Position numbers and translations under genes: made by a program. From NCBI GenBank assembly GCA_041659985.1, contig JBAZXE010000003.1, positions 1,977-65,976 of the forward strand: a stretch of 64,000 nt of DNA. Reading direction: 5' to 3'. The notes under the pieces are model-generated. The model saw only the letters and a list, made by a program, of their open reading frames with translations. It was not told where the DNA came from and ran no database searches. Every line of letters begins with the position of its first letter. The first letter of the stretch is position 1. Below, piece by piece: positions 5,177-47,427 of this stretch. This DNA is from Thermoplasmatota archaeon. Its GTDB lineage: Archaea > Thermoplasmatota > E2 > JACPAO01 > JAHFTW01.

Positions 5177-5179
5177 GCG

Positions 5180-7200: not shown

Positions 7201-7279
7201 TTCAACATGAGCGGATGGGCGGCCGGGCCTTGGGTGGTCTCCGCTCGCTTCTTGACCTGGTGCCGCCTTGGCCGCCTTG

Positions 7280-7744: not shown

Positions 7745-7755
7745 GGGGCCGCATC

Positions 7756-8109: not shown

Positions 8110-8127
8110 GAAATCCAGCCCGGCGAA

Positions 8128-8415: not shown

Positions 8416-8530
8416 GACCTAGACCTGGTGGGGCCCCTAACGAACCTTCCGAATCGCGGCCGGCCGCCGACCGCAGCCGCCATATCCTGCGCCCCTGCTG
8501 GCCACCTGGAGGCAACGCCTGGCTGGACGC

Positions 8531-9112: not shown

Positions 9113-9144
9113 CGGGCCATCCAGGAGCTCGCCGCAATCTTCTC

Positions 9145-9723
9145 GTGGCGCTGGTCACCGACGATTTCCGGCTTTACCATGAGCTTGCGCCGTATCTGGA
9201 GGCCAACGGCATCCGGGTCCTCGGCCTGAAACCCGGTGAAGACCCCCCCAAGTCGGTGAAGGTGCTCCTCGGCGGCCCTGCCGGCGATCCGCGCACCGTG
9301 CCTCTGCGCGATGATCGCGAGGCAACGTTGTTGGCCTTGATCGCAGCGCTCGATGAACGGCCGACGGCCAAGGGCGGCTACCGGCGCGTCGTCTTCGGCG
9401 TCGACCCGGGCCATGTCATCGGCCTCGCGGTGCTGGCCGATGGCCAGTGCCTGCATGTGACCGAGGCGCGCAGCCCCGACCAGGCCGTCGAGCGCATCGC
9501 CGCATGGGCCACCGGCCTCTCAGCGCAGCGCTGGGAAGTGCACGTCGGCGACGGCCACCCCAAGACGGGCCGTGGCATCCTCCCCGCCGTCAAGGCGCGC
9601 TTGCCGCAGGCCCGTGTGCTCCTGGTGCCGGAGGAGGCGACGACGCCGTTCCGCCCCGTCACCGCCAGCCGCCACACGGACGCCGCCATCACAATCGCGC
9701 AGCGCGAGCCGCGCATGGATTAG
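9145..9723 (+). CDS. RuvC/RNase H-fold nuclease-like protein (tentative)
   Basis: GTG 9145 inside track ORF 8629..9723 (the upstream part overlaps the previous gene out of frame). Motifs VVFGVDPGHVIGLAVL (GxDPG) and HTDAAITIAQR resemble RuvC catalytic blocks. Start uncertain. Confidence 0.4.
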   Translation: MALVTDDFRLYHELAPYLEANGIRVLGLKPGEDPPKSVKVLLGGPAGDPRTVPLRDDREATLLALIAALDERPTAKGGYRRVVFGVDPGHVIGLAVLADGQCLHVTEARSPDQAVERIAAWATGLSAQRWEVHVGDGHPKTGRGILPAVKARLPQARVLLVPEEATTPFRPVTASRHTDAAITIAQREPRMD

Positions 9724-9768
9724 GTCCAACCTGGGCATTGCTGGCGTGCCGGCTTTGCAAGCGGAACG

Positions 9769-10863
9769 TTGAACCGACGGCCCGTCCAATTGAGGGCGCC
9801 GATGGACCCGTCCCGCTGGATCGCCCTGCGCGAGCGCCTCGAGGACCTGCCGCAGGCGCCGGTCCCGCGCGCCCATCCGCGCAACTGGGTGTTCCGCGTC
9901 AAGCGTGGCCTCGACATCATCGGCCACCTCCGCCTCGACTCGGCGCGCTTCTTCGCCCACTACAACCCGTACCCGAAGCCGTTCAAGCATCTCGTCATCC
10001 CCCTTGACGAAGGCGTCGAGATTGGGGCGTGGCTGGGCCCGCAGCACGCCGAGCGCAGCGACTGGGGCTTGGTGCTGGTCCCCGGCATGTTCAGCACCAA
10101 GGACGACACCGTGCACAAGCGCCGGGCCATCCGGATGTGGCGGCATTGGCGCATCCCCGTCATCGCCATGGACATGCGCGGCTTCGGCGAATCCACCGGA
10201 ATCTCGACGGCCGGCTGGAAGGAGGCCGAGGACGTCCACGCCGCGGCCCGCACCCTTGTGGCGCAGACTGGCGTCAAGCGCGTGGCGATTCTGGCGGAAT
10301 CCTTGGGAGGGGCCGCCGCCCTCAACGCGTTGGCCTTCGACGGCGAATCCGGCCAGAACCTCTTCACCGGCGGCGTCCTGTGCTGGAGCGCCTTCGTGGA
10401 CGCGCGCGACGCGGTCAACTACATCTCCGAGCGCCCGCCGTCCGACCACCCGTTCCTCGGAGCGTGGGACGGTTTCCGTCGGCTGTTGCGCTTCAAGTCG
10501 ATGGGTGGGTACGACCGGTTCGACGAGTACCTCGAAGATGCGGCCCGCGTCCACGGCCTGTCCGGCTTCAGCGAGCTTGCCGACTTGTCGAACCCGAAGT
10601 GGAAGGTGCCACTGATGCGGCAGCCGACCCTCCTTGTCCATGCCACCGACGACCCTGTCGTCCCCGTGCGCCACGCCCGCCGCATGGAGCGCTACGCCGA
10701 AGGGCATCCCCACATTCAGACGCTCATCACTAGTTGGGGCGGCCACACCGGTTTCGAGCCCATGGACCCGACGTGGTTCTGGGAAGTCATGCGCCTCTTC
10801 TACGGCGAGGTCAACGGCGTCGAACTGCCGAATTTGGCCAACGAGCGGCTGCTCAAGCCGTAG
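9769..10863 (+). CDS. Alpha/beta-fold hydrolase
   Basis: 364 aa. Nucleophile elbow AESLGG, late Asp (HATDDPVVP) and His (WGGHTGF), consistent with a Ser-Asp-His triad. Alternative ATG at 9802. Confidence 0.7.
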   Translation: MNRRPVQLRAPMDPSRWIALRERLEDLPQAPVPRAHPRNWVFRVKRGLDIIGHLRLDSARFFAHYNPYPKPFKHLVIPLDEGVEIGAWLGPQHAERSDWGLVLVPGMFSTKDDTVHKRRAIRMWRHWRIPVIAMDMRGFGESTGISTAGWKEAEDVHAAARTLVAQTGVKRVAILAESLGGAAALNALAFDGESGQNLFTGGVLCWSAFVDARDAVNYISERPPSDHPFLGAWDGFRRLLRFKSMGGYDRFDEYLEDAARVHGLSGFSELADLSNPKWKVPLMRQPTLLVHATDDPVVPVRHARRMERYAEGHPHIQTLITSWGGHTGFEPMDPTWFWEVMRLFYGEVNGVELPNLANERLLKP

Positions 10864-11368
10864 GCGGCCCGGGCGCCCCCTGGTCGCGGCCCTCGGGCGG
10901 GGTCGGCGATCGCCCGGCGGTCCCCGCTTTGCGCGTGTGCCGCAAGGCCCGCCCAAACGCCGCCGCCGTGCGGGTCTGCCGGGCGTGGTGCGACGTCAAC
11001 TCACGGGCCAGGTCCACCGTGACCTGGGGATTCAACGGCTTGCGCAGGAACTGGGAGATGCGGGCCGAATTGAGGGCCTGGATGGCCACGTCCATGTCGG
11101 GGAACGCGGTCGCCAGGACGCGGGGCACCGAGGGGTGGGACTTCTGGACGATGTTCAGGAAGGCCAGGCCGTCCATGGGGGCCATCCGGTAGTCCGACAG
11201 GATGAGGCCGACCTCGTCTTCGGTCAGAAGCTCCAGCATGAGCAGGGCTTCCGGTGCGGACTGGAACGTCACGACGGGGCAACGCAGGGCCGGCTCGAGG
11301 ACGGCCTGGAGGCTCTCGCACGTATCGGGTTCGTCGTCCACGACGAGGACGAGGCGCTTCCCGGCCAC
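10853..11368 (-). CDS. Stand-alone response-regulator receiver domain protein
   Basis: RLVLVVDDEPD, LILSDYRMAPMDG and FLRKP are CheY-like acidic pocket, phospho-Asp and Lys blocks. Basic low-complexity tail and no output domain. Confidence 0.8.
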   Translation of the reverse strand: MAGKRLVLVVDDEPDTCESLQAVLEPALRCPVVTFQSAPEALLMLELLTEDEVGLILSDYRMAPMDGLAFLNIVQKSHPSVPRVLATAFPDMDVAIQALNSARISQFLRKPLNPQVTVDLARELTSHHARQTRTAAAFGRALRHTRKAGTAGRSPTPPEGRDQGAPGPPTA

Positions 11369-11567
11369 TCCCAGTAATTTTTCCGCCCTCGTGATAAAGA
11401 TTCAGGTTCCTTCCTGAACCTGGGCCATGGAAGGACCCAAGCCATCCTTCCCAAACCCTCAAAGCCACCTTTTTCCTGGTCGCCAGTGGAAGCGACGCCC
11501 CGCCGCGTGGGCCGCAAGCCGAGGGACGCCTTGTTGTCCTGCCGGCACCGGACGCGGCAAGTGCACC

Positions 11568-13085
<1,518 letters not shown>

Positions 13086-33603: not shown

Positions 33604-35193
33604 TCAGCGCGCCGAGCGGATGACCACCGGGTCGGCCAGGTGCTGTGCCACGGAGTTCGCGTAGTACTGCACGAGGTCCCACAAGATTGGGTGCGTGCGG
33701 AACAGTCCGTCGGCTCCCTCGAACAGGAGTCCCCGCCGTCCCATCACGTCGAGCGCTCGGCCGAGGAGTTCCTCGAGGTCGTCCGTCTCGGACAGCGTGA
33801 GGTGCACGACATCGAGTTCGTGTCGGCCTTCGGCGCGTTCCAGGCGCTTGCGTTCCTCTTCGCGCTTGGCGTATGGGTCGCCGGTGAAGAACGGCGCCTT
33901 GGCGGCTTCGAGGCGGTCGATGGCGCCGCGCAAGGCGAACAAGAGGTCGCCGCGCGGCACGCCGGCACTGAGGCGTTCGGCGCCCAGGTCGACCATGGCC
34001 GTGGCGACGGCGGCGACCGGAGTCACTGGGATGGCGCGGCCGATGCGGCGCAGCAGATCCTCGGCGAACGGGCGCAGGACTGCCTGTCGGGCGTGGCGGT
34101 CGTCCTCGCGTAGAAACTTGGGGTGTTTGGCGGACCAGTCGTCGAAAGAGACGGGTTCCCCGAAGTGGATGGCGCAGACGCCGTGCTTCTTCAGGCGCTT
34201 GGCGAGGAAGCGGCCGATGTTGGCGGGCACGCCGATGAACGCGCGGCCGACCAAGGTAAGGAGTCGCTTGGCTTTTTTCGCAGGGCCGCGACGGCGCAGC
34301 GGGTGGTCGCCGGCCAGCGTCTCTCGCACGAGAACCTCGTCCTCCAATACACGGTCGAAGTTGATTCCGACGGGCAGAAAGACGAGGGGCTTGGTGAACG
34401 CCGGGTCCTTCTTGGCGCGCCCCATGTGGTCGAGGAGGCCGAGTTTCACGGGGCGCAGTTTGCCGTCGCGGCTGAGTCCGCCTTCCGGGAACATTGCCTG
34501 CGTAACGCCTTGCTTGGTGACGAGTTGCAGGTACGATTCCAGGGTGCGGTGGTAGAGGGGGTCCTTCTCGCCACGCCGCACGAAGTAGGAGCCGAACGAC
34601 TTGAACAGGCCCTCCAGGGGCCAGACGCGCGCCCATTCGCCGACGGCGTAGGAGACCTGCACCGACTTGGAGAGCATGAAGCCGGTGACGACGAAGTCGG
34701 CGTTGCTGCGGTGGTTGGAGACGAGGACGACGGCGGCGTTGGGCGGCACCTTCGCCATGGCGGCGTCGAGGCTGGCCTTGTCGAGGCGGACGTTGTACAG
34801 GGCGTACGCGAAGATGCGAGCGAGGCGGTAGCCGACGCGGTAGTAGGCCAGGAGGTTGAACTGCGGGACAATCTCGTCGAGCCAGGCCCGGACCTGGGAT
34901 TGCACTTCAGCAAACGGCTTGTTCTGCTCGCGGGCCCGTTCCGCCATCGCCTCGACCAGACCGGGGTCCGACAGCACCATCTCCTTGACGACGACGCGGT
35001 GCGTGTGGCGGAACGGGTCGGTCGGGATGCGGTGGCTGCGCAGGAAGGCATCGACGCGGCGTTCCTGCCGGCCGCGCCACCATCCGGCAAGGAAGGAGCG
35101 CACGAGTTCGTACAGCAGGACGGCCGCGAGCGCGATGAGCGCCACCTGAAGCCAGTCGCCGGTCGTCCAGGCCAACGCCCTCCCCACCCCCAC
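33604..35193 (-). CDS. PlsB/GPAT-family glycerol-3-phosphate (or DHAP) acyltransferase-like protein
   Basis: 529 aa with an N-terminal TM. Acyltransferase blocks I-IV: VSNHRSNADF (HX4D), SYFVRRGEKD, FPEGGLSRDGKL, VFLPVGINFDRVLE. Confidence 0.7.
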   Translation of the reverse strand: MGVGRALAWTTGDWLQVALIALAAVLLYELVRSFLAGWWRGRQERRVDAFLRSHRIPTDPFRHTHRVVVKEMVLSDPGLVEAMAERAREQNKPFAEVQSQVRAWLDEIVPQFNLLAYYRVGYRLARIFAYALYNVRLDKASLDAAMAKVPPNAAVVLVSNHRSNADFVVTGFMLSKSVQVSYAVGEWARVWPLEGLFKSFGSYFVRRGEKDPLYHRTLESYLQLVTKQGVTQAMFPEGGLSRDGKLRPVKLGLLDHMGRAKKDPAFTKPLVFLPVGINFDRVLEDEVLVRETLAGDHPLRRRGPAKKAKRLLTLVGRAFIGVPANIGRFLAKRLKKHGVCAIHFGEPVSFDDWSAKHPKFLREDDRHARQAVLRPFAEDLLRRIGRAIPVTPVAAVATAMVDLGAERLSAGVPRGDLLFALRGAIDRLEAAKAPFFTGDPYAKREEERKRLERAEGRHELDVVHLTLSETDDLEELLGRALDVMGRRGLLFEGADGLFRTHPILWDLVQYYANSVAQHLADPVVIRSAR

Positions 35194-35369: not shown

Positions 35370-35627
35370 TTGACCCGCGTCATCACCTCCAAGTGCATCG
35401 GCACCAAGGACACCAGCTGTGTCGATGTCTGCCCCGTCGACTGCATCCACCCGAAGAAGGACGATGCCAAGTTCGGCTCGGAGACCCACCTCTACATCAA
35501 CCCGGACGAGTGCATCGACTGCGGCGCTTGCGAATCCGCCTGCCCGGTCAACGCCATCTTCCCGGACGACGAGGTCCCCGAGGGCGAGAAGAAGTACATC
35601 CAGATCAACGCGGATTACTTCAAGTGA
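35370..35627 (+). CDS. fdxA: 7Fe ferredoxin ([3Fe-4S][4Fe-4S])
   Basis: TTG start. Cys spacing C8-x7-C16-x3-C20P ... C-x2-C-x2-C-x3-CP (SKCIGTKDTSCVDVCPVDC ... DECIDCGACESACP). Confidence 0.85.
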   Translation: MTRVITSKCIGTKDTSCVDVCPVDCIHPKKDDAKFGSETHLYINPDECIDCGACESACPVNAIFPDDEVPEGEKKYIQINADYFK

Positions 35628-35745
35628 GCACGAAACGGTCCTCGCTCTTCGAGCTCGGACACGTTTCGCGCTAGACCGGTCCTTCGGACCCCCCTCGGCC
35701 GGCTCGCAAAGCTCGCGGGCAAGCCCGCTCTTGGCGCGATGGGAC

Positions 35746-35759
35746 GGGCCAAATAGCCG
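35746..35759 (+). promoter_or_regulatory. Shared 14-mer GGGCCAAATAGCCG (TATA-like AAATAG) upstream of paralog P1
   Basis: Identical 14-mer recurs at 38353-38366 upstream of P3. The AAATAG centre is ~26 nt from GTG 35780, the spacing expected for a leaderless transcript. Confidence 0.45.
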
Positions 35760-35779
35760 GACCCAAATCGACGGCCGCC

Positions 35780-37072
35780 GTGATCGAGTGGTCGCACCTG
35801 GACACCTCGTTCGGCGCGCTCATCCGCTCGGGAGTGGGCATCCTCTCGGTGGTGCTTGGCTCCTTCGTGCTCGCGGCCAAGCCCCGGCTCCGGCCTAACA
35901 TGCTGCTCGGCGTGTTCCTCGTGCTAGACGGCCTGACCTACGCCATCTACGCCTTGGCCGGCGGCTTCTCCGACTTCCCGCACAAGGAGCTCGTTGTCCC
36001 CTCGCACGTGGTCACGACCGTCGTCCAGTTCACGCTTGCTGGCCTGCTCCTGGCCTATGCGGTGTCGTTGCTGCGGCGGGCTGGCGCAAGCGGGCCGACC
36101 TGGGCCTTCGCCATCACCGTCTTCCTGTTGTGGGCGACCGGCAATCCGGTCGTCTTCTTCCTCTTCGACATGCGGCCCCCCGTCGAGCTGTTCGGCAGCC
36201 CCGAGGGGCAGGTCGCGGGCATGTGGGACTACACGTCGTTCGGGTTCTACATGGGTGGCGTGGCCTTCGCCTGCGTCGCTCTGCTGGCCTCCCTGCGCCA
36301 CGACCCCGACCATCCTGCCGCGCGGGCCCGCCTTCTGCTGGCGGGGAACTGGCTGGCGGCCATGCTCACCGCCATGGTCGTCGTCGTCTTGGCCGCCGCC
36401 TCCGACCCTTCGTTTGCCGGCCCGTTCGCCCGCATCTTGGCCGTAGTGGGAGCCGCCCTGGTGCTTGGGGTGGCCCTCGGCCTGCTTCGCCTGCCGCGCG
36501 TGGGGCCGTGGAAGGGATGGTGGCCCGTCAGCGTGCTGCTGGCCGGCTTGGCGGTCGCCGTGGTCGAGATGCTGCTCGTCGCGGGCGATGCGCCCTCCGA
36601 CGGAGGGTTCGGGGGCGTGGTCGCGTTGATCGGGGTCGCCGGGGTCGCCTACGCGGTCTTCCGCCTCGACCTCCTCGGCGTGCCGGTCCCGCGTCCGCGG
36701 GCCGGGGTCTTGGCCTCCATCGCGCTGGCGACGCTGTTCATCACCGCCCAGGTCGCGCAGAACTTCCTGAGCGACGAGCTCGGCCTACTGACTGGTGGCA
36801 TCGTCGCTGGCGCCGCGGTCTTCGCGGCTTACCCGCTGCAGAAAGCGGCCGAGAAAGCAATGGAGAAGCGGGCAAGCGGTCCGGATGGCCGGCGGCCGTC
36901 GACCGGGGAGGCGGCCTACCGGACGGCCCTTGGCCTGGCCTTGCGCGACCGCCGCCTGAGCTCAGAGGAAGAGCTGGAGTTGGCGCGGTTGGCGGACCAA
37001 CTCGGCGTCGGCGCAGTCCGGGCGCTGGAGATTCGCGGCGAGGTTGCCGGGAGGCGCACGCGTGGGGCTTGA
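35780..37072 (+). CDS. Polytopic (~11 TM) membrane protein, paralog P1, with conserved C-terminal module and TerB-like tail
   Basis: 430 aa. ~9 variable TM helices, then the conserved block RLDLLGVPVPRPRAGVLASIALATLFITAQVAQNFLSDELGLLTGGIVAGAAVFAAYPLQKAAE and a helical tail (AYRTALGLALRDRRLSSEEELELARLADQLG). Confidence 0.65.
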   Translation: MIEWSHLDTSFGALIRSGVGILSVVLGSFVLAAKPRLRPNMLLGVFLVLDGLTYAIYALAGGFSDFPHKELVVPSHVVTTVVQFTLAGLLLAYAVSLLRRAGASGPTWAFAITVFLLWATGNPVVFFLFDMRPPVELFGSPEGQVAGMWDYTSFGFYMGGVAFACVALLASLRHDPDHPAARARLLLAGNWLAAMLTAMVVVVLAAASDPSFAGPFARILAVVGAALVLGVALGLLRLPRVGPWKGWWPVSVLLAGLAVAVVEMLLVAGDAPSDGGFGGVVALIGVAGVAYAVFRLDLLGVPVPRPRAGVLASIALATLFITAQVAQNFLSDELGLLTGGIVAGAAVFAAYPLQKAAEKAMEKRASGPDGRRPSTGEAAYRTALGLALRDRRLSSEEELELARLADQLGVGAVRALEIRGEVAGRRTRGA

Positions 37073-38363
37073 CCTGTCCGCCGCTGCCCTCATCGGCTGC
37101 GGCACCGGCCTCATCTTCTGCCTGTTCGGCGCGTTCTTCGTGGCGCACGCCAAGGGCAACCGGTTGAACCTCGCGCTCGGCATCGTCTACATCTCAAACG
37201 GCTTGGCGGGCATGGTGCTCTTCCCGGGCGGCATCTTGCTTCCCGAAGAGGAGTTCACGTTCGCCGTGCCCGTGTATGCCATTGCCCTGGCCTTCGACCT
37301 GGTTTCGCTTGCCGGCATGGTCGCCCTCGCAGTGCAGCAGGCCCGGCGCCTGCCTTCGCCTTCACGGCGCATCGTCGCATGGTTCGCGGCGGGCTTGGGG
37401 CTCGCGCTGGCGGCCGCCCTCGCCATCCTTGCACTGCTTGGATTTCCCTCGGAATACACCGGCACGCGATTGGTCTTGTCCTACGTTGACGGCGTCACGT
37501 TCAGGGCATTCTTGAGCGCGTGCGCCATTGTGGCCCTCGTCGGCTTGGAAAGCATCCGTCGCGGCCTCGAGTGGTCGCGAACCGGCGCGGCACTCTTGCT
37601 CGCAGTCTTCCCCATGATGCGCAATGCCTCGAGCGATTTGTCGGTCGCGGTCATTGAGTTTGCGCGACAAACCGACGACCTCGCCACTTATGCATTCCTC
37701 CTGGCGAGCCTGTTGGTCCTTGGGCCAGTTGCCTGGTCCTTGGGGGCCATGGCGGCCCCCAACGGCAAGCACGCGCGAAACTTCCTGCTGCTCGTGGCCG
37801 CCAACATGATCCTGACGGCGTTTCTGCACGCAGCCGTCGGCCCCACACAAAGCGTTCTGCGTGTGGCCGGCATTGTGGCCGTCGCCTCGATGGCCGCGCC
37901 GGCCTACGCGGTGGTGCGCCTTGACCTCCTGCAGACTCGCCTGCCGCGACCCACCATCCGGGCGGGCACACTCGCCTCCATCGGGCTCGGAGCCCTCTTC
38001 ATCACCGCTCAGGTCGCGCAGAACTTCCTCAGCGACGAGCTCGGCCTCTTGACTGGAGGCATCGTGGCTGGCGCCGCGGTGTTCGCGGCCTATCCCTTGC
38101 AGAAGGCGGCCGAGCGGGCGATGGAGGGCCGCGGGCGGGGCGACCCGGCCAAGGCCGAATCGGCGGACAAGTATCGCCGCCTCGTCGAGACCGCCTGGCG
38201 TGATGGGCGCCTCGGGGCCAACGAGCGCCTGCTCTTGGCCGAGGCCCGGCGCCAACTGGGGCTCGATGCCGAGACCGCTTCAAGCATTGACGAAGGGGTC
38301 GCGCGAAAACATGCGGCACGCCCCCAACCACGACGGGGCCGTTCGGTCGGCGGGGCCAAATAG
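37062..38363 (+). CDS. Polytopic membrane protein, paralog P2
   Basis: GTG 37062 (track ORF starts at 37044) overlaps the P1 end by 11 nt. Same plan as P1, with 39 consecutive residues identical to P1. Confidence 0.65.
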   Translation: MGLDLSAAALIGCGTGLIFCLFGAFFVAHAKGNRLNLALGIVYISNGLAGMVLFPGGILLPEEEFTFAVPVYAIALAFDLVSLAGMVALAVQQARRLPSPSRRIVAWFAAGLGLALAAALAILALLGFPSEYTGTRLVLSYVDGVTFRAFLSACAIVALVGLESIRRGLEWSRTGAALLLAVFPMMRNASSDLSVAVIEFARQTDDLATYAFLLASLLVLGPVAWSLGAMAAPNGKHARNFLLLVAANMILTAFLHAAVGPTQSVLRVAGIVAVASMAAPAYAVVRLDLLQTRLPRPTIRAGTLASIGLGALFITAQVAQNFLSDELGLLTGGIVAGAAVFAAYPLQKAAERAMEGRGRGDPAKAESADKYRRLVETAWRDGRLGANERLLLAEARRQLGLDAETASSIDEGVARKHAARPQPRRGRSVGGAK

Positions 38364-38366
38364 CCG
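38353..38366 (+). promoter_or_regulatory. Second copy of 14-mer GGGCCAAATAGCCG, upstream of paralog P3
   Basis: Embeds the P2 stop codon (TAG 38361-38363). Followed by AATCGAAC, compared with AATCGAC after the first copy. ~55 nt upstream of ATG 38414. Confidence 0.4.
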
Positions 38367-38413
38367 CTGCGGAATCGAACAAGCCGTGGCGGCGGCCTGT
38401 GGGGGATTGAGCG

Positions 38414-39757
38414 ATGGACATTGAGTACGCCGCCATCGTCCGGGCCAGCGTCGGCGTCCTGTACGCCCTTCTAGGATTGTTCTTGATCGTTCGGGCGCCG
38501 CGGTCCAAGACGATGGCCGTTTGGGGCGCCGTCTACTTCATCACGGGCAGCATGCGCATTCACGGGAATCTCCTCGTAATCCTGTCCGATAAAACTCTCT
38601 TGTCCACTCTGGACATCCTCATCAGCGTCCTGTTTGACCTCGTCCTCTTGGCACTGCTTGTGGCTCTATTGGTCTTCGCCGCACGACCGCTTCCTCGCAC
38701 GTCGGTCCGCGCCGTCCGCGCCGTCTTTCTGAGCGGATTCGCCATCGCCCTGGCGTACGTCATCTTCGATTCCGGCCCATTCCGCGAGATTCCGGTACGC
38801 CAGATGGCGTTGATCGCCAATAAGGCCGTGGACACTTCGGTGGTCTTCGCAGCAGGGGCGCTCTGGATTGCAATCCTGGAAGGCTTGAGGCGACAGTCGA
38901 TGCCGAAGGCAAAATCCTGGCTTCTGGCTGCGTTTCCCATCGTGGGAACCATCGTCGGAGGGAACGTGGCCAGCCAGATGGACTGGCTGTTCCCCGAGTT
39001 CGTTGTGTTCATCACGGACCTGCCGCCCATCGCGGCGCTTGACGCGTTGACCGCAGTCGTTGCCCTCGTTCCATTGGCCTGGTGCTATGCATTGTTGGGA
39101 GGCCCGAATGGCCGGTTCGTCTGCAACCTGTTGCTGGGCATCTTCGTGTGGATTGCCTTTTCTCTGGCCTACGTGAGGACTGCACCGGAATTCGACGGGT
39201 TCTTCGGGACGGCGCCAGGAATCCTGCGGGTCATTGCCTTGGCTACCATTGGGTACGCCATCGTGGCACGTGATTTCTTGCCGACGGCCCTACGTCTTCC
39301 GACTGCCCGACGCGGGACGCTGGCGGGAGTCGCCCTGGCAAGCCTGATTATCACGGCACAAATCGCGCAGAATTTCCTCGGGGCAAAGTATGGCATCTAC
39401 GTGGGTGGCCTCGTTGCCGGCGGCGTCCTAGTGGCCGCATTCCCGCTGCAACGACGACTCGAGCGCGTCGCGGGAAGTCGCAATCGGAACGAAGCCGATT
39501 CGGAACGTTCGTTCGTCCAGGCCGCCCGAATCGCCCTGCGCGACCGGGTTCTGACCACGCAGGAGGGACTCGACCTACTGGACTTGGCGTTCCAACTGGG
39601 CATACCCCCGCGCCGGGCTACGGCACTAATCGACCAGGAACGCTCCTCCCAGCAAGGCGGTCGCCGCCAGTTGGGGCTCGACGCTGAGACGACTGTTGTC
39701 ATCGACGAAGGGGAAGCGGGGCGCCACGTTTCGTCTTCCAGGAAAAAGCCCGCATGA
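38414..39757 (+). CDS. Polytopic membrane protein, paralog P3 (more divergent, lower GC)
   Basis: 447 aa. Conserved block LIITAQIAQNFLGAKYGIYVGGLVAGGVLVAAFPLQRRLE. The tail carries two LG...ID half-repeats, the second (RRQLGLDAETTVVIDEG) matching the P2 end (RRQLGLDAETASSIDEG). Confidence 0.65.
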   Translation: MDIEYAAIVRASVGVLYALLGLFLIVRAPRSKTMAVWGAVYFITGSMRIHGNLLVILSDKTLLSTLDILISVLFDLVLLALLVALLVFAARPLPRTSVRAVRAVFLSGFAIALAYVIFDSGPFREIPVRQMALIANKAVDTSVVFAAGALWIAILEGLRRQSMPKAKSWLLAAFPIVGTIVGGNVASQMDWLFPEFVVFITDLPPIAALDALTAVVALVPLAWCYALLGGPNGRFVCNLLLGIFVWIAFSLAYVRTAPEFDGFFGTAPGILRVIALATIGYAIVARDFLPTALRLPTARRGTLAGVALASLIITAQIAQNFLGAKYGIYVGGLVAGGVLVAAFPLQRRLERVAGSRNRNEADSERSFVQAARIALRDRVLTTQEGLDLLDLAFQLGIPPRRATALIDQERSSQQGGRRQLGLDAETTVVIDEGEAGRHVSSSRKKPA

Positions 39758-40140
39758 CCTCCAACCGGTTCCCGCTCACCCTTCTGCCGGGCAATATCGC
39801 CGTCTGTCGTCTCGCGCCCGATTCGGAAGTGCCCGACTGGTCGAGCGAGGGGCCGTTCTCGTGCGTGATGCGGACGCCCGACGAACTCTCGATCGTCTGC
39901 GCCGAGGCCGCCGTCCCCGCAGGGATCCAGGCTGAACGTGGGTTCCGCGCGCTCAAGCTCGAAGGCCCGGTTCCGTTCACGACGATCGGCGTCGTGAGCG
40001 GCATGACCAAGCCGCTGGCCGAGGCCGGCATCAGCGTGTTCATCCTCTCCACCTACGACACGGATTACCTCCTGGTCAAGGCGACCGCCCTCGACCGGGC
40101 GGCGAAGGTTCTGGGGCGCGCGGGATTCTCAGTCGCCTGA
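39754..40140 (+). CDS. ACT-domain (ACT_7/CASTOR-like) small-molecule-binding protein
   Basis: 128 aa. Start overlaps the P3 stop (ATGA). The pattern IAVCRL......P.W......F......DELSIVC ... GISVFILSTYDTDYLLVK is typical of ACT_7 proteins. Confidence 0.6.
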   Translation: MTSNRFPLTLLPGNIAVCRLAPDSEVPDWSSEGPFSCVMRTPDELSIVCAEAAVPAGIQAERGFRALKLEGPVPFTTIGVVSGMTKPLAEAGISVFILSTYDTDYLLVKATALDRAAKVLGRAGFSVA

Positions 40141-40204
40141 CCGCCCGCCGCCACTCCGATAGCGAACCAAACCCCTTTGACCCCCCGTCGGCGTCGCCGT
40201 CGCA

Positions 40205-41734
40205 ATGGGCGGGCCGATCAAGTTCAAGCAGAACCTCCGGTTGTTCGAGGCCATCACCATCATCGTCGGCTCGATGATTGGATCCGGCATCTTGCTTCTG
40301 CCCGCCGACATGGCTGAGCTCATGCCAAGCCCCGGCCTCATTCTGCTCGTGTTCGGGGCCGGCGCGGTGCTGACCATCGTCGGAGCCCTGACCTTCGCCG
40401 AGCTGTCGGCCATGTTCCCCCGCGCCGGCGGCCAGTACCATTTCCTCAAGGAGGGCCTGGGCCGCTTCTACGGCTACCTCTTCGGCTGGACGCAGTTCTG
40501 GGTCATCCAGACCGGCATCGTGGCCGGCGTCGCCGTCGCCGTGACGCGCTTCACCAAGTTCTTCGTCGAACGCAACGGCGGCCACCTCGGCGGCCATTCC
40601 GTCCGCTTGACCGAGCTGGTGGACGTCGGCCCCTGCGTGCAGGAAAGCCTCGCCGGCGAGTGCACGAAGCGGCTCATCCACCTCGACCCGTTCACCATCC
40701 CCGCCTGGGGCGACGCCTTCGTCGCCATCGCGGCAATCCTCCTCCTGATGGGGCTCAACATGCTGAGCACCCGCTTCGGCGGCATCGTTCAGAACATCAG
40801 CACCGTCGCCAAGGTCCTTGGCCTGGTGAGCCTGGTTGCCATCATCTTCATCGGCGGCTCCCTCGTCGACGGCGGCTACGAGGCCACGGGCGGCGGTTTG
40901 GCGCCGGAGGGCATGGGCGCCGGAGCCCTTGTCGTCGCCTTCGGCGGCGCCCTCGCGCTCAGCCTCTTCGCCTACGACGGTTGGCCGCAGGCCACCTACG
41001 TCGCCGGTGAGGTGCGCAACGCCAAGCGCAACCTTCCCCTGGCGCTCATTATCGGCCCGCTCATCACCGCGGTCGTCTACATCGCCCTCACGGCGGCGTA
41101 CTTCTACGTCATTCCGATTGATGAGGCGGTCCGGCTCGGCATCAACGACGAGCGCATCGCGCCCGTCGCAGCGGGCAAGGTCTGGGACTACGGCCCGGTC
41201 TACATCAGCGCCGTCGCCCTCGTCTCGGTCTTCGGCACGGTCAACGGCTTCTTGCTTACCGCACCGCGCATCTTCTACGCCTTGAGCCACGACGGCGCCT
41301 TGCTGCCCAGCATGGGCAAGATCAGCAGTCGCGGCACTCCGGCGTGGGCCATCTACTTCACCGCTTTGTGGGCCAGCCTCCTCGTGTTGTCGGGCGGGTA
41401 CCAGCAACTGGTGACCATGGTCGTCTTCGGGATCTTCCTGTTCTACATCCCGACGGCGATTGCCCACATGCGCATGCGCAAGACGCACGCCCACGTCGAA
41501 CGGCCGTTCAAGACCCCGCTCTACCCACTGGTCCCCATCCTGTTCATGCTGGCCAGCGTGTTCATCGTCGGCATCATCCTCGTGGGTTCGCTGCTGCAGG
41601 GACTCATCGCCTTGGTCCTCATCGCCGCCGGCATCCCGGTCTATTTCGCGCAGCGACCGCGCATGATCCGCGTCGAGGCCGAACGCCAGGCCGAGGCCAC
41701 GCCACCGGCCGAACCGGACCCGGCCGTCACATAG
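40205..41734 (+). CDS. APC-superfamily amino acid permease
   Basis: 509 aa, ~12 TM. The N-terminal block LFEAITIIVGSMIGSGILLLP...GAL.FAELSAMFPRAGGQY is typical of APC transporters. Confidence 0.85.
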   Translation: MGGPIKFKQNLRLFEAITIIVGSMIGSGILLLPADMAELMPSPGLILLVFGAGAVLTIVGALTFAELSAMFPRAGGQYHFLKEGLGRFYGYLFGWTQFWVIQTGIVAGVAVAVTRFTKFFVERNGGHLGGHSVRLTELVDVGPCVQESLAGECTKRLIHLDPFTIPAWGDAFVAIAAILLLMGLNMLSTRFGGIVQNISTVAKVLGLVSLVAIIFIGGSLVDGGYEATGGGLAPEGMGAGALVVAFGGALALSLFAYDGWPQATYVAGEVRNAKRNLPLALIIGPLITAVVYIALTAAYFYVIPIDEAVRLGINDERIAPVAAGKVWDYGPVYISAVALVSVFGTVNGFLLTAPRIFYALSHDGALLPSMGKISSRGTPAWAIYFTALWASLLVLSGGYQQLVTMVVFGIFLFYIPTAIAHMRMRKTHAHVERPFKTPLYPLVPILFMLASVFIVGIILVGSLLQGLIALVLIAAGIPVYFAQRPRMIRVEAERQAEATPPAEPDPAVT

Positions 41735-41745
41735 TCACGCAATGA

Positions 41746-42177
41746 CTACCGCGTCGCTTTCTTGCCAGGTTTGGCCCGCTTCCTGGTGGAGCGCGCCAAG
41801 ACGCAGATGCGCTCGACGGCGGCCGTGAAGTCGTCGTAGTGGAACGGCTTCTGGATGTAGTCCAGCACACCCAGTCCCTCGCAGGTGGCGACGGCGGCTT
41901 CCTCGCGAGCGGTGCTGAAGACGACGACTGGCAGGCCCCGGGTCGGTTCGTCCTCGCGCAGACGGCGCAGGGTCTCGAGGCCGTCCAACACAGGCATGTT
42001 GAGGTCGAGGACGACGAGGTCCGGGCGCGTGACCTGGAGGGCGGCCAGCGCCGCTTCACCGTCGCCGACGAACTCGATGGCGGGCGGTGCGGCAATCTGG
42101 CTCAGCGCGTGATGGATGAGCACTTGGTCATCCACGCCGTCCTCGGCCCACAGGATGCTGGCCACTCGGGTCGGCAC
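41746..42177 (-). CDS. Stand-alone response-regulator receiver domain protein
   Basis: ILWAEDGVDD, LVVLDLNMPVLDG and YIQKP blocks. Start uncertain (GTG 42177 or 42165; the track ORF extends to 42282). Confidence 0.75.
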   Translation of the reverse strand: MPTRVASILWAEDGVDDQVLIHHALSQIAAPPAIEFVGDGEAALAALQVTRPDLVVLDLNMPVLDGLETLRRLREDEPTRGLPVVVFSTAREEAAVATCEGLGVLDYIQKPFHYDDFTAAVERICVLARSTRKRAKPGKKATR

Positions 42178-42317
42178 TACCCCTTCGACGCCGAAGCCTC
42201 TTGATGAAGCTTTCTTGTGGGCACGGCCTTGCCCAGCAGGACCGGGGGAGAGTTGGCTGGTGGGCACGATGTTGCCCCACAACGGTTGTCATGCTCGGGA
42301 GCCGAAGAGGGCCCTGG

Positions 42318-42485
42318 ATGGACGTCAATCCGCGCGAATGCATGTTCTGCCACGGCGACCTGCCCGTTCGCCCGGACGAACCCGTCAACCTGGCGTTTAT
42401 GGCCCACATCGAGACCCGTGCGCCATGCCGGTCGGAGTTCGACGTGTGGACCAACCACATGCAGAAGGACTTCACGGGATACTAA
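42318..42485 (+). CDS. Small Cys/His-containing protein (55 aa), possible zinc-binding
   Basis: ATG 42318 inside track ORF 42201..42485. MDVNPRECMFCHG...HIETRAPC. Its end overlaps the convergent Nob1 stop by 4 nt. Confidence 0.4.
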   Translation: MDVNPRECMFCHGDLPVRPDEPVNLAFMAHIETRAPCRSEFDVWTNHMQKDFTGY

Positions 42486-42997
42486 TCGCCGCGAGTCGGA
42501 CGGGTGCCGCCTTTCCACGGCCGTGGTTTGACGGGCGAGCCGCACACCGGGCAGTCCTCTGTCTTGGGCATGGCCTCAAACCAGCGCCCACATCCGGTGC
42601 AGCGCGGCCGGAAGTCAAGGCTTGCCCGGATTCCGTGCTGATTCACTGTTTGTGTTCGGACGCCCAACCGCGCTGCAAGGTCGAGCAGGGTGTAGTCATC
42701 CGTGACCAACGTGGCCTGCGCGCCCAACTCCAACGTCAAGGCCAAGAGGGACCGGTCTGCGGCGCTGAGCCGGGCCAGATTGCCGGCTGTCACTCCTGCC
42801 GCCTCCACTCGTGACCGGGCCTCGGGTCCGGGGTCGCGCACCTCCAGGCCGATGGACTGCCAATCCTCAAAGCGCCGGGCATCCCGCCCGCCGGGCGACA
42901 CCTCGGCCGCCGCCTCGGACGTGGTCGCCCAGCGCGGGCCGCGCGGCGGATCCTTGCCGCCGAGCAGCAACGACGTGTCGAGGACGAGCCACTGCAC
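42482..42997 (-). CDS. nob1: Nob1-like endonuclease (PIN domain + C-terminal zinc ribbon)
   Basis: GTG 42997 inside track ORF 42482..43171. WLVLDTSLLLGG and TLVTDDYTLLDLAARLG are PIN blocks; CTGCGRWF....CPVCGS is a zinc ribbon. Confidence 0.65.
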   Translation of the reverse strand: MQWLVLDTSLLLGGKDPPRGPRWATTSEAAAEVSPGGRDARRFEDWQSIGLEVRDPGPEARSRVEAAGVTAGNLARLSAADRSLLALTLELGAQATLVTDDYTLLDLAARLGVRTQTVNQHGIRASLDFRPRCTGCGRWFEAMPKTEDCPVCGSPVKPRPWKGGTRPTRGD

Positions 42998-43078
42998 GTC
43001 CGGGCAAGGGGCCGTCGCGCGCTTCAGGATGTCGCAGCGCTGCGGCAGGGCCAAGAGCGCCGGGCCGGTCCGGGGGCC

Positions 43079-43792
43079 GTGGACGGGACGGCCCTCGGCA
43101 TTCTCCTTGGTTTGGCGTTCCTGCCGCCCCTGCTGTTCATGCTTTGGGTGCGGAACCACGAGAAGACCCAACCTGAGCCATTGGGCGCGGTGTTCGGTTT
43201 GTTCGTCTACGGCGGGTCCCTGGGGGTGGGCATCGCCCTTGCCTTGTCTTTGCTGCTCGACTACGGCATCGGCGTCGAGTTGGGCGGACTGGCCCTCGTC
43301 GGCGTGGTCGTCGTCGCGCCGCTTGTGGAGGAGTTTGCCAAAGGACTCGGGCTCGGCCTGGTACGGACCCGGGTGCGCGAACTTGAGGACGGCATCGTGT
43401 ACGGCGCCGCCATCGGCCTAGGCTTCGGCGCAACGGAGAACCTGCTCTACGGGTTCCAAGCCCTGGGTGACGGTGGCATCGAGCATGCGGCGGTCACCAT
43501 CGCGTTCCGCGTCGTCTCGAGCGTGCTGTTGCATGCCGGGTCGTCGGCGCTCCTGGGTTACGGCTACGGCCTCATGCGTTTGCGGCGCAAAGGGCTGGCG
43601 ATGCTGCTGCCCTACTATTTGCTCGCGGTCCTTCAGCACGCGCTATACAACTTCCTCGTCGGTCCGCAGTACCTCTGGGGCTTCGCGGCCGCCGTCGTCA
43701 TGGTTCTCGTCGTCACCGGCTCCCTGCGCCGGCAGATTCGCCGCTTGGACGCCCGTCCGGCCGATGCCTGGGAACCCGTGAATCGGCAGTAG
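43079..43792 (+). CDS. PrsW-family intramembrane metalloprotease
   Basis: 237 aa, polytopic, with EEFAKG, ATENLLYG and HALYN motifs. Confidence 0.75.
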   Translation: MDGTALGILLGLAFLPPLLFMLWVRNHEKTQPEPLGAVFGLFVYGGSLGVGIALALSLLLDYGIGVELGGLALVGVVVVAPLVEEFAKGLGLGLVRTRVRELEDGIVYGAAIGLGFGATENLLYGFQALGDGGIEHAAVTIAFRVVSSVLLHAGSSALLGYGYGLMRLRRKGLAMLLPYYLLAVLQHALYNFLVGPQYLWGFAAAVVMVLVVTGSLRRQIRRLDARPADAWEPVNRQ

Positions 43793-44312: not shown

Positions 44313-45266
44313 ATGGTCAAAGTCGGCTTCGTCGGCGCCGGCACCATTGGTGCCAACTCGATCTTCGCGAGCCTCATGCTCACCGACCGCATCGACGAGA
44401 TCGCAGTCGTCGACATCGCCGAGGCCGCCGCCGTCGGGCGCGCCATGGACCTCAACACGGCCTCCGTCGCCTTCGGCCGCCGCACCAAGGTCTCCGGCAG
44501 CACCGACTACGCGACGCTGAAGGGCGCCGACTTGGTCGTCGTCTCCGCCGGTGTCCCGCGCAAGCCCGGCATGACGCGCGCCGACCTCCTGGGCATCAAC
44601 ATCAAGATCCTCAAGTCGGTGTGCGCCGAAGTCAAGAAGAACGCCCCCGACTGCGTCTTCCTGCTGGTGAGCAACCCGGTCGACATCCTGCTCTACATCT
44701 GCTGGAAGGAGCTCGGCTTCTCGCGCGAGCGCACCATCGGCATGACCAGCCTGCACGACTCCGCCCGCTTCACGGACATCGTGCGCGACGCCACCGGCGA
44801 CCGCACCGTCCGCGCCACCATCCTGGGTGAGCACGGCGAGACCATGTTCGTCTCGCCGACGCTCTCCAGCCCGGAGCTCAAGGGCGGCGACTGGGAGGCC
44901 TGGGAGAAGAAGACCCGCGGCCGCGCCATGGAGATCATCGAGCGCGTCGGCGCCACCGCCTACGCCCCCGGCGCCTGCACGGGCCGCATGGTCAAGGCCA
45001 TCATCGAGGACACGCACGAGGAGATTCCCACCGGCGTCATCCTGATGGGCGAGTACGGTCACCGCGACGTCGCCACCGGCGTCCCCGCCGTCCTGGGTCG
45101 CGGCGGCCTCATCCGCGTCGTCCAGTACGACCTGAGCGCCGTCGAGAAGGCCAAGCTCGAGGTCACCGTGAAGGCCGTGCGCGAGAAAATCGACGAAGGC
45201 CTGCACATCCTGGCGAACCCGCCGGCACCCACGCCCGCCCCCGCGCCGACTCCGAAGACGGCCTGA
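44313..45266 (+). CDS. mdh: Malate dehydrogenase (LDH-like MDH family)
   Basis: VGFVGAGTIG, DLVVVSAGVPRKPGMTRADLL, LLVSNPVD, ILGEHGETM. Confidence 0.85.
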   Translation: MVKVGFVGAGTIGANSIFASLMLTDRIDEIAVVDIAEAAAVGRAMDLNTASVAFGRRTKVSGSTDYATLKGADLVVVSAGVPRKPGMTRADLLGINIKILKSVCAEVKKNAPDCVFLLVSNPVDILLYICWKELGFSRERTIGMTSLHDSARFTDIVRDATGDRTVRATILGEHGETMFVSPTLSSPELKGGDWEAWEKKTRGRAMEIIERVGATAYAPGACTGRMVKAIIEDTHEEIPTGVILMGEYGHRDVATGVPAVLGRGGLIRVVQYDLSAVEKAKLEVTVKAVREKIDEGLHILANPPAPTPAPAPTPKTA

Positions 45267-45341: not shown

Positions 45342-46097
45342 TCAGATGAACGTGTTGACGCCTTGGCTGCCTAGCGCCGGGTCCGGGACAGACGCCCGCA
45401 TCTTGCTGAGTTCGCCTTCAAGCGCCATGGCCTCCTGAAGCAAGGGCTTGGCGTCCATGAGGACGTCGGGCATGATCTTGCCAAGGGCCTCGATGAGTGC
45501 GGCGGCCGCCCGGCCGTCCGGATGGTCCCGCGTCGCTTCGACCATGATGGCCCCGGAGCGCACCTTGCGGGCTGGAGCCAAGAGCAGGATGTGCGCCGTG
45601 ATGCCGCCGATGAGCGCGCGCTCCACCGCCGGGATTCCCGTCTTGGAGATCTCCTGCAATACGTCATCGGCCGCCGCGGCGCAGAAGACGTCCGGGGTGT
45701 CATCGCCTTCGCCGCGCACGACCCCCTCCAGGGCGATGACGAGGTGGGCACCGCCTTTGCCGGCCCAATCGAGGATGGTTTCCGACAGCCGCATGGCAAC
45801 CGATGGAGGCGGGGCGAGTTCCGTCGTGATGACATAGATGCGCGGGCACTTCCTGTCGAGGCGGCAGGCGACCTCACCGCCGAAGACGCGCACGGCCGAC
45901 GTGGCGCGCCCGTCCTGGATGGCCGTGATGGCGGACAATTCCGGGAAACGCAGATGGGCCACCAGCGGCAGCTCGAGGTTGCGGATGAGGTACTGGGCCG
46001 CGATGGAGGCCGCCGAGCCCGTGGTGGGGAAGGCGGCGATAACGAGGGCGTCTTTGAGGTCAATGGCCCCGAAGGCTTCCAGGGTCGGTTCCGGCAT
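45342..46097 (-). CDS. PAC2-family proteasome assembly chaperone
   Basis: 251 aa. ALVIAAFPTTGSAASIAAQYLI... is typical of the archaeal PAC2/PbaA-B family (COG1938-like). Confidence 0.55.
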   Translation of the reverse strand: MPEPTLEAFGAIDLKDALVIAAFPTTGSAASIAAQYLIRNLELPLVAHLRFPELSAITAIQDGRATSAVRVFGGEVACRLDRKCPRIYVITTELAPPPSVAMRLSETILDWAGKGGAHLVIALEGVVRGEGDDTPDVFCAAAADDVLQEISKTGIPAVERALIGGITAHILLLAPARKVRSGAIMVEATRDHPDGRAAAALIEALGKIMPDVLMDAKPLLQEAMALEGELSKMRASVPDPALGSQGVNTFI

Positions 46098-46257: not shown

Positions 46258-47427
46258 CTAGAGCCGACGACGGCGACGGCGCTCCTCGATGATGAGAGCC
46301 CGCTCGCGACCAATCTGGCCGCGGATGGAGGTGTTTTCCTCCGCGCGGCGCGTGAGATAGGGAACGACGGCGCGGACTGGGCCGTAGGGGACGTACTTGC
46401 AGACGTTGTAGCCCTCGGCCGCGAGGTTGTAGGAAAGGTGGTCGCTCATCCCGAGGAGCTGCGAGAAGTACAGCCGCGGGTCGTCGCGGCGGAGTCCGCG
46501 CTTCTCCATGAGTTCGGTCAGCAGGAGGGTCGACGTCTCGTTGTGCGTGCCTGCGACAAGCGCAATCCGGTCGAGGTGCTCGACCGAGAAGACCAGCGCC
46601 GCGTCGTACGCTGCGTCACTGGCGGCCTTGTCCGGCAGGATGCAGGAGTCCGCCCCCGCCGCCGCGGCTCGGGCGCGCTCCTTTTCCATGTAGGCGCCCC
46701 GCACGAGTTTCAATCCGAGCAGGTATCGGCCCTCCGTCGCGCGCCGGTGGCTTTCGCGCAGGAAGTCGAGGCGGCCTCGGCGGTAGAGTTGGATCGTGTT
46801 GAAGACGATGGCCGTCTCGGTGTTGAACCGGGCCATCATGGTGGTCGCAACATCGTCGATGGCGCCCTGGATCCACGACTCTTCGGCGTCGATGAAGAGA
46901 CGCACGTTCTTCGCGTGCGCGTGCGCGCAGACGCGCTCGACGCGGCTCTTGGCGCGCGCCCATTCATCGTTCTCGCGTGCATCGAGCGCCTGCCCGGCGT
47001 CGACCTTCTCGAGCAGGGCGAAGCGGGCGACACCCGTCATCTTGAACACGCAGAACGGGATGGCCGGGTTCCTTGCGGCCAGGTCGATGGTGCGCTCGAT
47101 CTCGTCCGTCGTCCGGTCGAACTCCGCTTCGTCCTCGTGCCCCTCGTCCGCGATGTCAAGGATGGTCCCGACGCGGAAGCGCCACAACGTCTCGATGGTG
47201 GGGGCGCACTCGGCGATCGTCTCGCCGCCGCAGAATTGGCGAAAGATTGTGCGTTTGACGAGCCACACCACTGGGAGGTGGAGGGTGAGCGCGACGCGCA
47301 GGAGCCACGTGCCGGTCCGGACGGCCCAAGGGTGGGCAAACGCCCGAAACATCCAGTCGGCCCGCCGTAGCGCGACATCGCTCTTTGAACGGAACGCGAC
47401 CTCGGTGTTGGCGAAGCTCAGCGCCAT
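46258..47427 (-). CDS. putA: Proline dehydrogenase
   Basis: 389 aa. FIDAEESW, VFNTIQLYRR, GLKLVRGAYM, AGTHNE, QLLGMSD and YVPYGP...YL.RR..EN blocks of the PRODH TIM barrel. Confidence 0.8.
   Translation of the reverse strand: MALSFANTEVAFRSKSDVALRRADWMFRAFAHPWAVRTGTWLLRVALTLHLPVVWLVKRTIFRQFCGGETIAECAPTIETLWRFRVGTILDIADEGHEDEAEFDRTTDEIERTIDLAARNPAIPFCVFKMTGVARFALLEKVDAGQALDARENDEWARAKSRVERVCAHAHAKNVRLFIDAEESWIQGAIDDVATTMMARFNTETAIVFNTIQLYRRGRLDFLRESHRRATEGRYLLGLKLVRGAYMEKERARAAAAGADSCILPDKAASDAAYDAALVFSVEHLDRIALVAGTHNETSTLLLTELMEKRGLRRDDPRLYFSQLLGMSDHLSYNLAAEGYNVCKYVPYGPVRAVVPYLTRRAEENTSIRGQIGRERALIIEERRRRRRL

Follow-up and report, generated by a model that had tools for sequence, protein, structure and literature searches.

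The 64,000 nucleotides analysed here (the window, to which all positions refer) belong to contig JBAZXE010000003.1 of a Thermoplasmatota archaeon (GenBank assembly GCA_041659985.1, positions 1,977 to 65,976 of the forward strand) and have a G+C content of ~67%. Between positions 35,780 and 41,734, three consecutive genes for related polytopic membrane proteins, called P1, P2 and P3, are followed on the same strand by a gene for a small ACT-domain protein and by an amino acid permease gene. P1-P3 belong to an undescribed family, the membrane domain of which matches nothing solved or curated. The clustering of P genes with genes for an ACT_7 protein and a permease is conserved, often with translational coupling, and is limited to one sub-clade of the family. 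Each of the P proteins can be divided into a nine-helix bundle, a hairpin made of transmembrane helices 10 and 11 (TM10-TM11) and a tail, the last two being referred to together as the C-module. The genes and their sub-parts are the following.

35780-37072, + strand: P1, open reading frame (ORF) with a GTG start, 430 amino acids (aa), matching the family hidden Markov model (HMM) at 1.8e-103; the same gene is called by JGI (P0020). From the alignment to the P2 model, bundle ~35810-36664, TM10-TM11 hairpin 36704-36871, type-B tail 36890-37063.
37062-38363, + strand: P2, 433 aa from GTG 37062 (JGI call P0001, 100% identical), matching the family HMM at 4.6e-101. Bundle 37080-37919, hairpin 37965-38132, type-A tail (KYRRLVETAWRDGRLGANER...) 38145-38318.
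38414-39757, + strand: P3, ORF of 447 aa, family member. Bundle 38426-39268, hairpin 39314-39481, type-B tail 39485-39658, extra tail helix ~39660-39730.
39754-40140, + strand: small stand-alone ACT protein with A9CJY8-like_N and ACT_7 domains (Pfam 3.9e-19 and 9.7e-14).
40205-41734, + strand: permease of the APC superfamily, SLC7/LAT type (AA_permease_2, 1.4e-50).

An earlier note on this DNA, made from the sequence alone, had described P1-P3 as paralogues with these limits, and all its coordinates and overlaps match ORFs in the sequence. The stop codon of P1 (37070-37072) lies beyond the GTG start of P2 at 37062, giving an 11-nt overlap; the longest ORF of P2 starts further upstream, at TTG 37044. 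The ATGA at 39754-39757 is common to the stop codon of P3 and the start codon of the ACT gene. Comparisons by tblastn relate P1 to P2 at 7.8e-41, P2 to P3 at 9e-37 and P1 to P3 at 1.4e-25, far beyond chance, and P1-P3 are three old tandem paralogues. Orthologues of P3 are found at ~50% identity (P0028, P0029), and a P3-like copy is also present in another locus carrying family genes, L023. At its 3' end, P3 encodes the final tail helix once more, in its P2-type form (RRQLGLDAET..IDEG; 39660-39730 compared with 38260-38320, ~80% DNA identity), so that the tail of P3 is a hybrid; this helix may represent the ancestral 3' end that preceded the ACT gene. A 35-nt direct repeat (..GGGCCAAATAGCC..AATCGA, 74% identity) is located at 35737-35771, just 5' of the P1 start, and at 38344-38378, across the P2 stop and 5' of P3. 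The repeat may be what is left of the duplication unit, an AT-rich promoter-like box, or a chance resemblance.

The architecture of the P proteins was examined with an alignment of 138 relatives, which served as input for an AlphaFold model of P2 (mean predicted local distance difference test score, pLDDT, 89.1; predicted template modelling score, pTM, 0.80). The model shows nine membrane helices, a two-helix hairpin (residues 302-357) and three short tail helices (residues 362-419) with pLDDT >90. Averaged over the alignment, the number of Lys and Arg residues per loop alternates between ~3 and ~0.7 in successive loops, and the tail is highly charged. These features indicate 11 transmembrane helices, with the N-terminus outside and the tail in the cytoplasm, that is, in the same compartment as the soluble ACT protein. 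The plan of about 11 helices with a divergent nine-helix N-terminal part, already proposed from the sequence, is thus borne out by the loop pattern and by the 9+2 helices of the model. The conserved block reads as the earlier note had written it, P3 departing from it at 'R.DLL' and 'PRP'.

Conservation within the family peaks in the hairpin and the tail. The hairpin carries the pattern L-F-I-x-A-Q-V-A-Q-N-F ... G-L ... G-G-x-V-A-G ... P-x-Q ... E, with a polar face formed by A-Q-x-x-Q-N and a small-residue face formed by G-G-x-x-A-G. In the nine-helix bundle, the family alignment contains no invariant polar or charged residue and no conserved residues of a catalytic or substrate-binding type. 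Between P1 and P2, sequence identity amounts to 19% for the bundle and to 62% for the C-module, and ~45 residues of the conserved block are the same in both. Nei-Gojobori estimates for this pair give, in the hairpin, a synonymous divergence (dS) of 0.80 and a nonsynonymous divergence (dN) of 0.07 (dN/dS ~0.09) and, in the bundle, a dS of 1.02 and a dN of 1.11. Recent gene conversion, considered as a source of the identical block, was rejected because the hairpin (0.80) has accumulated nearly as much synonymous divergence as the remainder of the gene. The hairpin is instead held constant by strong purifying selection, the duplicates being old. A variable polytopic N-terminal part joined to a conserved membrane-proximal module, as had been suggested, therefore describes these proteins well, dN being close to dS in the former and far below it in the latter.

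P1-P3 have no significant match to a Pfam or NCBIfam family. The whole model, compared with the PDB by Foldseek, gave no match at E<=1e-3, the best ones being G-protein-coupled receptor (GPCR)-like with TM-scores of 0.25-0.29, which is noise; the isolated C-module gave nothing at this threshold either, and no TerB or Tic110 structure. A profile match to the mycobacterial arabinosyltransferase EmbA (7BVF, E 3e-4) was rejected as a composition artefact because the bias score accounts for 20.9 of its 23.1 bits. Pfam matches such as those to Acyl_transf_3, Wzy_C, Chs7 and MotA_N, none of which was seen in more than 3 of 100 members, were likewise set aside as noise due to the composition of transmembrane segments. 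Neither P1-P3 nor 100 relatives match the sensor input modules HisKA_7TM, 7TMR-DISM or 5TMR-LYT in Pfam, and the comparison of P1-P3 with the HisKA_7TM and TerB profiles that had been recommended gave no match. The 150 listed relatives, 125-462 aa in length, contain no extra domain and no precomputed Pfam domain. The view that P1-P3 form an unassigned family with no kinase, transporter signature or other output domain thus holds against Pfam, NCBIfam and Foldseek; the proteins are labelled 'hypothetical protein' in their sources. In the searchable literature, no description of the family was found, and nothing relevant turned up on ACT_7 or Atu0741-like proteins, on TerB, DUF533 and Tic110 in combination, or on a permease with ACT in Thermoplasmatota.

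These results bear on the idea that transport, whether as a secondary transporter or as a channel, is carried out by the P proteins themselves, which might for instance export amino acids or other small solutes. The bundle would then set specificity, the hairpin would line a pore or gate, the tail would be regulatory, and import by the LAT-type permease would be paired with export under the control of the ACT protein. The proteins are indeed polytopic, with 11 transmembrane helices, and transporters often come as tandem paralogues that diverge in their membrane domains. Moreover, the Gln/Asn and Gly-Gly-x-x-Ala-Gly motifs of the hairpin resemble those of pore-lining helices, and the genes adjoin a permease gene and a gene for an amino-acid-binding-type protein. 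However, no Pfam or NCBIfam transporter model matches the P proteins, and known transporter and channel families (APC/LeuT, MFS, DMT, LysE/RhtB, MscS and others) share with them no profile match, no fold and no internal repeat. No solved transporter or channel was retrieved by Foldseek (best TM-score ~0.25, GPCR-like noise). An internal duplication of the bundle was not found by hhalign between helix blocks (all probabilities <4%), and the bundle is devoid of invariant charged or polar residues. In addition, short forms reduced to the C-module exist, as seen in a C-module profile search in which only 8 proteins were scored. At L023:368-853, a 161-aa protein comprises only the last bundle helix, the hairpin and a type-A tail; its gene starts 74 nt after a ferredoxin gene and immediately precedes the ACT gene, which it overlaps by 4 nt. 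From this short form it follows that the C-module may function without the nine-helix bundle, and in L023 the position beside the ACT gene appears to require no more than the C-module. On these grounds, a transport function of the P proteins themselves is thought unlikely.

The tail, a helix-turn-helix of ~50 aa, follows the motif Y-R-x-A-x-x-x-A-x-x-D-x-x-L-x-x-x-E-x-x-x-L-x-x-L-x-x-x-L-G, in which the Asp and the Glu are near-invariant (D381/E388 in P2 numbering, D377/E384 in P3 numbering). It had been likened to TerB/DjlA-type repeats. At the level of the motif, this impression is weakly supported by sequence comparison and is a reasonable lead: among 100 relatives, sub-threshold Pfam matches were obtained to Tic110 (11 proteins, best 0.02), DUF533 (10 proteins, best 6.7e-5) and TerB (7 proteins). 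A profile of the tail alone matches residues 207-253 of the Tic110 structure 4BM5 (E 6e-4), as a single match of 47 residues, the other repeats of 4BM5 scoring near zero. The same tail profile matches the TerB structure 2OU3 weakly (E 0.25). Membership of the TerB or DUF533 families did not hold up, as the Pfam gathering score is reached neither by P1-P3 nor by the 100 relatives, and P1-P3 themselves have no TerB or DUF533 match at E<=1. In PADLOC, similarity is confined to ~48 residues of the tail, which match PDC-S48 models (E 6e-5 to 6e-3), and no full-length match to a defence protein was obtained.

The family is large. An exhaustive phmmer search with P3 (E<=1e-3) yielded at least 484 clusters at 50% identity, nearly all of 390-440 aa. 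The named sources are all Thermoplasmatota-type archaeal metagenome-assembled genomes from soil and groundwater, and the family is restricted to Thermoplasmatota. The triplication seen in the window, which the earlier note had listed among the hints of a sensing or transport-regulating module, is not peculiar to this locus, because tandem multiplication is a trait of the family. In L022, at least 11 consecutive copies lie on the same strand within 12.6 kb (1-12621; ENA ERZ1700618, a 31-kb contig), with one gene split in two, and the array may extend past the stretch examined. L008 contains 4-5 copies, with a PIN-type gene interspersed, and L009, L017, L020, L021 and L028 contain 2-4 copies each. 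Within arrays, the bundles share 14-35% identity, near saturation, and the C-modules of neighbouring genes 67-75%; in the first four genes of L022, for instance, these values are 17-23% and 67-75%, respectively. As a general figure, bundles of one array have drifted to ~20% identity and the C-modules have remained at 60-75%.

The identities of the downstream neighbours of P3, an ACT protein, an APC permease and a convergent receiver-domain gene, are those of the earlier note, with Pfam or NCBIfam matches for each. The ACT protein reaches 68.7 and 51 bits where 27 would suffice, which places it in the ACT_7/A9CJY8-like family. It matches Atu0741 (PDB 1ZHV) over its full length at 4e-25 and the ACT domains of CASTOR1/2 at ~3-6e-9. 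It is thus a true sequence homologue of Atu0741 and of the CASTOR1/2 ACT domains, and a putative ligand-binding protein. The permease scores 172.9 bits against AA_permease_2 (cut-off 27) and belongs to the APC superfamily; against NCBIfam TIGR00911, it has an E value of 2e-56 and 191.5 bits, below the cut-off of 701.8 for this model. Its nearest solved relatives are b(0,+)AT1 (2e-50) and BasC (6F2G, 2e-49), followed by y+LAT1, LAT1 and xCT, with E values ranging up to 1e-30. Relative to all LAT/SLC7 relatives, it carries an insert of ~50 aa after residue 113 (~114-165) with two cysteines, and every PDB or NCBIfam match is split into residues 1-113 and 165-482.

The cluster is flanked by two further genes.

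35370-35627, + strand: ferredoxin, 85 aa, 2x[4Fe-4S] (Pfam Fer4_7, 5e-17), upstream neighbour of the cluster.
41746-42282, - strand: receiver-domain-only gene (Response_reg, 1.7e-20), convergent with the permease gene.

The arrangement ferredoxin, P, ACT_7, permease recurs on one strand in at least eight further non-redundant loci, with 1-3 P genes, 1-2 ACT genes and 1-2 permease genes; a scan of metagenome contigs contributed 8 short loci only. The ferredoxin gene stands directly upstream in L001, L004, L018, L020, L023, L026 and L028, with 72-97% identity. The composition of individual clusters is as follows.

L001: one P, one ACT and two permease genes.
L004 and L026: one P and two ACT genes.
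L018: one P, one ACT and one permease gene.
L020: two P and two ACT genes.
L021: gene order ACT, P, P, permease.
L023: short P, ACT, M28 peptidase, P, permease.
L027: partial, with a P gene and two ACT genes.

The 4-nt overlap of P and ACT genes is found in four loci (the window, L001, L019 and L023). The flanks of the clusters vary, comprising a cytochrome oxidase, or a Na/H exchanger with an MMPL protein, or a receiver with PIN and PrsW genes, and the identity of the permeases between clusters drops to 53-57%. In L017, a distant P copy abuts a divergent ACT_7 gene, with a pyridoxal phosphate (PLP) enzyme nearby. The receiver gene is not part of the conserved cluster: no receiver-domain gene stands beside the permease gene in L001, L004, L018, L021 or L023, tblastn with the receiver protein found nothing in any related locus, and the gene is absent from all related clusters. 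As for the ACT and permease genes, their association with P stands for one sub-clade (at least eight further loci), where co-occurrence survives changes in order, copy number and flanks; it does not extend to most of the wider family.

Several other members of the family stand beside genes of amino acid or peptide metabolism. At L025:210-2659 there are a RidA gene and a gene for a Thr/Ser-dehydratase-like PLP enzyme, and at L017:3187-5021 the ACT_7 gene is accompanied by one for a PALP enzyme. Peptidase genes are also found as neighbours (M3 oligopeptidase, L016:4340-6118; M28 peptidase, L023:1276-2340). Such neighbours are suggestive.

The distribution of the clusters raises the possibility that P proteins have no functional coupling to the ACT protein and the permease. 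The gene order would then be synteny inherited within one Thermoplasmatota order, and the role of the family would lie in the buffering of envelope or membrane stress, in line with the TerB-like tail, or in a diversifying role in conflict or immunity, at which the large arrays hint. ACT or APC genes are lacking beside most family members, the array of at least 11 copies in L022 has nothing else in between, and a PIN-type gene lies within the array of L008. Weak matches to families of the TerB clan and to PDC-S48, a defence candidate in PADLOC (E 6e-5), both made by the tail only, also go in this direction, as does the wide occurrence of ACT_7 proteins without P. However, the PADLOC matches span only ~48 tail residues. 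Furthermore, the 4-nt P/ACT overlap in four loci, the retention of the cluster through changed flanks and internal order, the independent ACT_7 gene beside a distant P copy in L017 and the presence of members beside amino-acid-metabolism genes (RidA and Thr/Ser dehydratase in L025, M3 and M28 peptidases in L016 and L023) are less easily accommodated by inherited synteny. This explanation deserves serious attention but appears somewhat doubtful.

The same clusters can be examined for another type of relationship, in which P proteins would be accessory or biogenesis subunits of the LAT-type permease, as a parallel to heavy chains or as membrane chaperones, stabilising or inserting it rather than signalling. 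The closest solved relatives of the permease are SLC7 light chains, which depend on a partner in eukaryotes. P and APC genes occur together in every cluster examined, including L021, where the ACT gene is upstream of both P genes, and the small-residue face of the hairpin would suit helix-helix packing. It should, however, be noted that the copy numbers of P and permease genes are unrelated (3:1 in the window, 1:2 in L001), that most family members have no permease neighbour, and that P proteins have no similarity to SLC3 or to known chaperones. Finally, BasC-type bacterial LAT homologues function without a partner subunit. An accessory role of this kind is regarded as very unlikely.

The reading that we favour, with a probability of about one in three, is that P proteins are non-enzymatic membrane adaptors or sensors, and that their C-module and the ACT protein jointly adjust the uptake of amino acids. 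According to this model, P proteins would be neither enzymes nor transporters. The hairpin and the tail would make up a surface for output or docking on the inner side of the membrane, possibly by oligomerisation. The soluble ACT protein would bind an amino acid and associate with this surface, and permease-mediated uptake would be tuned in this way, with the variable bundles feeding in different signals at the level of the membrane. The logic proposed can be likened to that of GlnK-AmtB, or to CASTOR with a membrane partner. Counted in favour of this model are the cytoplasmic location of the tail, the selection on the hairpin and the divergence of the bundles in arrays, the short form of L023, the persistence of the P, ACT_7 and permease cluster, the 4-nt overlaps of P and ACT genes, the ACT_7 gene beside a distant copy in L017 and the homology of the ACT protein to CASTOR1/2.

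The distribution of tail types also bears on this model. Of the 11 contexts known for the type-A variant (Y-R-R-L-V-E-T-A-W-x-D-G-x-L-G-A-N-E-R), 9 have an adjoining ACT_7 gene. Type-A tails are more conserved than the default tail (66% versus 44% for the same bundle divergence), a comparison biased by the word-based search seeded with P2 from which the type-A set was drawn, which inflates tail similarity. The idea that the tail type is a perfect marker of ACT linkage was rejected because of two exceptions, L024 and L025.

The bias just mentioned is one of several points that count against the favoured model. The type-A-tail proteins of L024 and L025 are not beside ACT_7 genes within the short contigs available. 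In eleven loci (L007-L016 and L022), neither an ACT_7 gene nor a permease gene was found near the family gene, a dedicated ACT HMM having been included in the search. The ACT-linked loci may correspond to only 2-3 independent evolutionary events. The small ACT_7 family has over 1,600 members, stand-alone proteins of 120-145 aa that are found without P, also in bacteria; ACT_7 proteins being so widespread without it, their function does not need P. Fusions of P with ACT or with the permease were not seen among the listed relatives of P and of ACT_7. Lastly, nine helices are more than a simple anchor would call for, and the bundle has no ligand site that can be named.

Comparison with known systems helps to situate the P proteins. 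The tail, a membrane-proximal cytoplasmic helix-turn-helix with a near-invariant Asp and Glu, weakly resembles TerB, DUF533 (YebE) and Tic110 (PF05099, PF04391, PF16940). However, these families form multi-repeat bundles, whereas the P tail is a single, sub-threshold repeat, and they lack an 11-helix domain of the P kind. With HisKA_7TM, 7TMR-DISM, 5TMR-LYT and MASE, the P proteins share a plan in which a variable multi-helix membrane domain with very short loops precedes a conserved cytoplasmic module; like these polytopic sensor modules, they have many paralogues per genome. They differ from them by the absence of any sequence match, by the lack of a kinase, cyclase or other output domain, by their 9+2 helices and by their tandem arrays, polytopic sensor input modules being usually not arranged in this way.

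GlnK is a small ligand-binding regulator encoded next to AmtB, the transporter that it plugs, and CASTOR1/2 are ACT-domain arginine sensors of mTORC1. The likeness to both lies in a small stand-alone protein of a beta-alpha-beta, ligand-binding type, here encoded beside a transport gene, and is an analogy of logic. The ACT protein is not a PII protein, a third partner similar to P has no counterpart in GlnK-AmtB or CASTOR, and GATOR-type partners of CASTOR are missing here. In the heteromeric SLC7 and SLC3 transporters, the light chains are similar to the permease, which is also encoded with a membrane protein; yet the SLC3 heavy chains, with their single transmembrane helix and glycosidase-like ectodomain, have nothing in common with P. 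The permease itself stands apart from the LAT model of NCBIfam, being far below its cut-off (191 versus 702 bits) and carrying the ~50-aa insert. Taken together, the P proteins could be fitted among membrane proteins that combine a variable polytopic part with a TerB-like juxtamembrane module, and could also be categorically new in both fold and system. A bolder proposal would view them as a kinase-free, receptor-like archaeal superfamily, in which hypervariable bundles and a TerB-like output module are multiplied in arrays and one branch is wired to a CASTOR-type ACT protein and an SLC7/LAT permease, that is, a membrane signalling or 'transceptor' system for nutrient sensing with a fold that has no solved counterpart. 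We consider this decidedly unlikely.

The wider neighbourhood contains other genes. Upstream, a PlsB-like glycerol-3-phosphate acyltransferase gene (Acyltransferase and GPAT_C domains; 33604-35193, - strand) has relatives of 82-92% identity in L004, L020 and L026; such an acyltransferase is unusual for organisms expected to make ether lipids. Downstream, a gene for a PIN-domain and zinc-ribbon protein (42482-43171, - strand) is divergent from a PrsW-family intramembrane protease gene (43079-43792, + strand), the longest ORFs overlapping by ~90 nt at their 5' ends. Farther away are genes for a malate/lactate dehydrogenase (44313-45266), a PAC2 proteasome-assembly homologue (45342-46097, - strand) and a proline dehydrogenase (46258-47427, - strand).

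If the favoured model is true, the P proteins would represent a new, kinase-free coupling of membrane-level inputs to amino acid uptake in archaea, and the cluster would provide a tractable prokaryotic context for a CASTOR homologue and an SLC7/LAT permease. If, on the other hand, there is no link to the neighbouring genes, the P proteins would be another uncharacterised membrane family of uncultured soil and groundwater archaea, of modest interest, for which a family definition would still be merited. Whatever their function, they constitute a large family of a single lineage, confidently foldable, with a fold that has no match in the PDB. Their mode of evolution is unusual, with arrays in which the bundles have diverged to near sequence saturation and a 50-residue hairpin has been kept almost unchanged.

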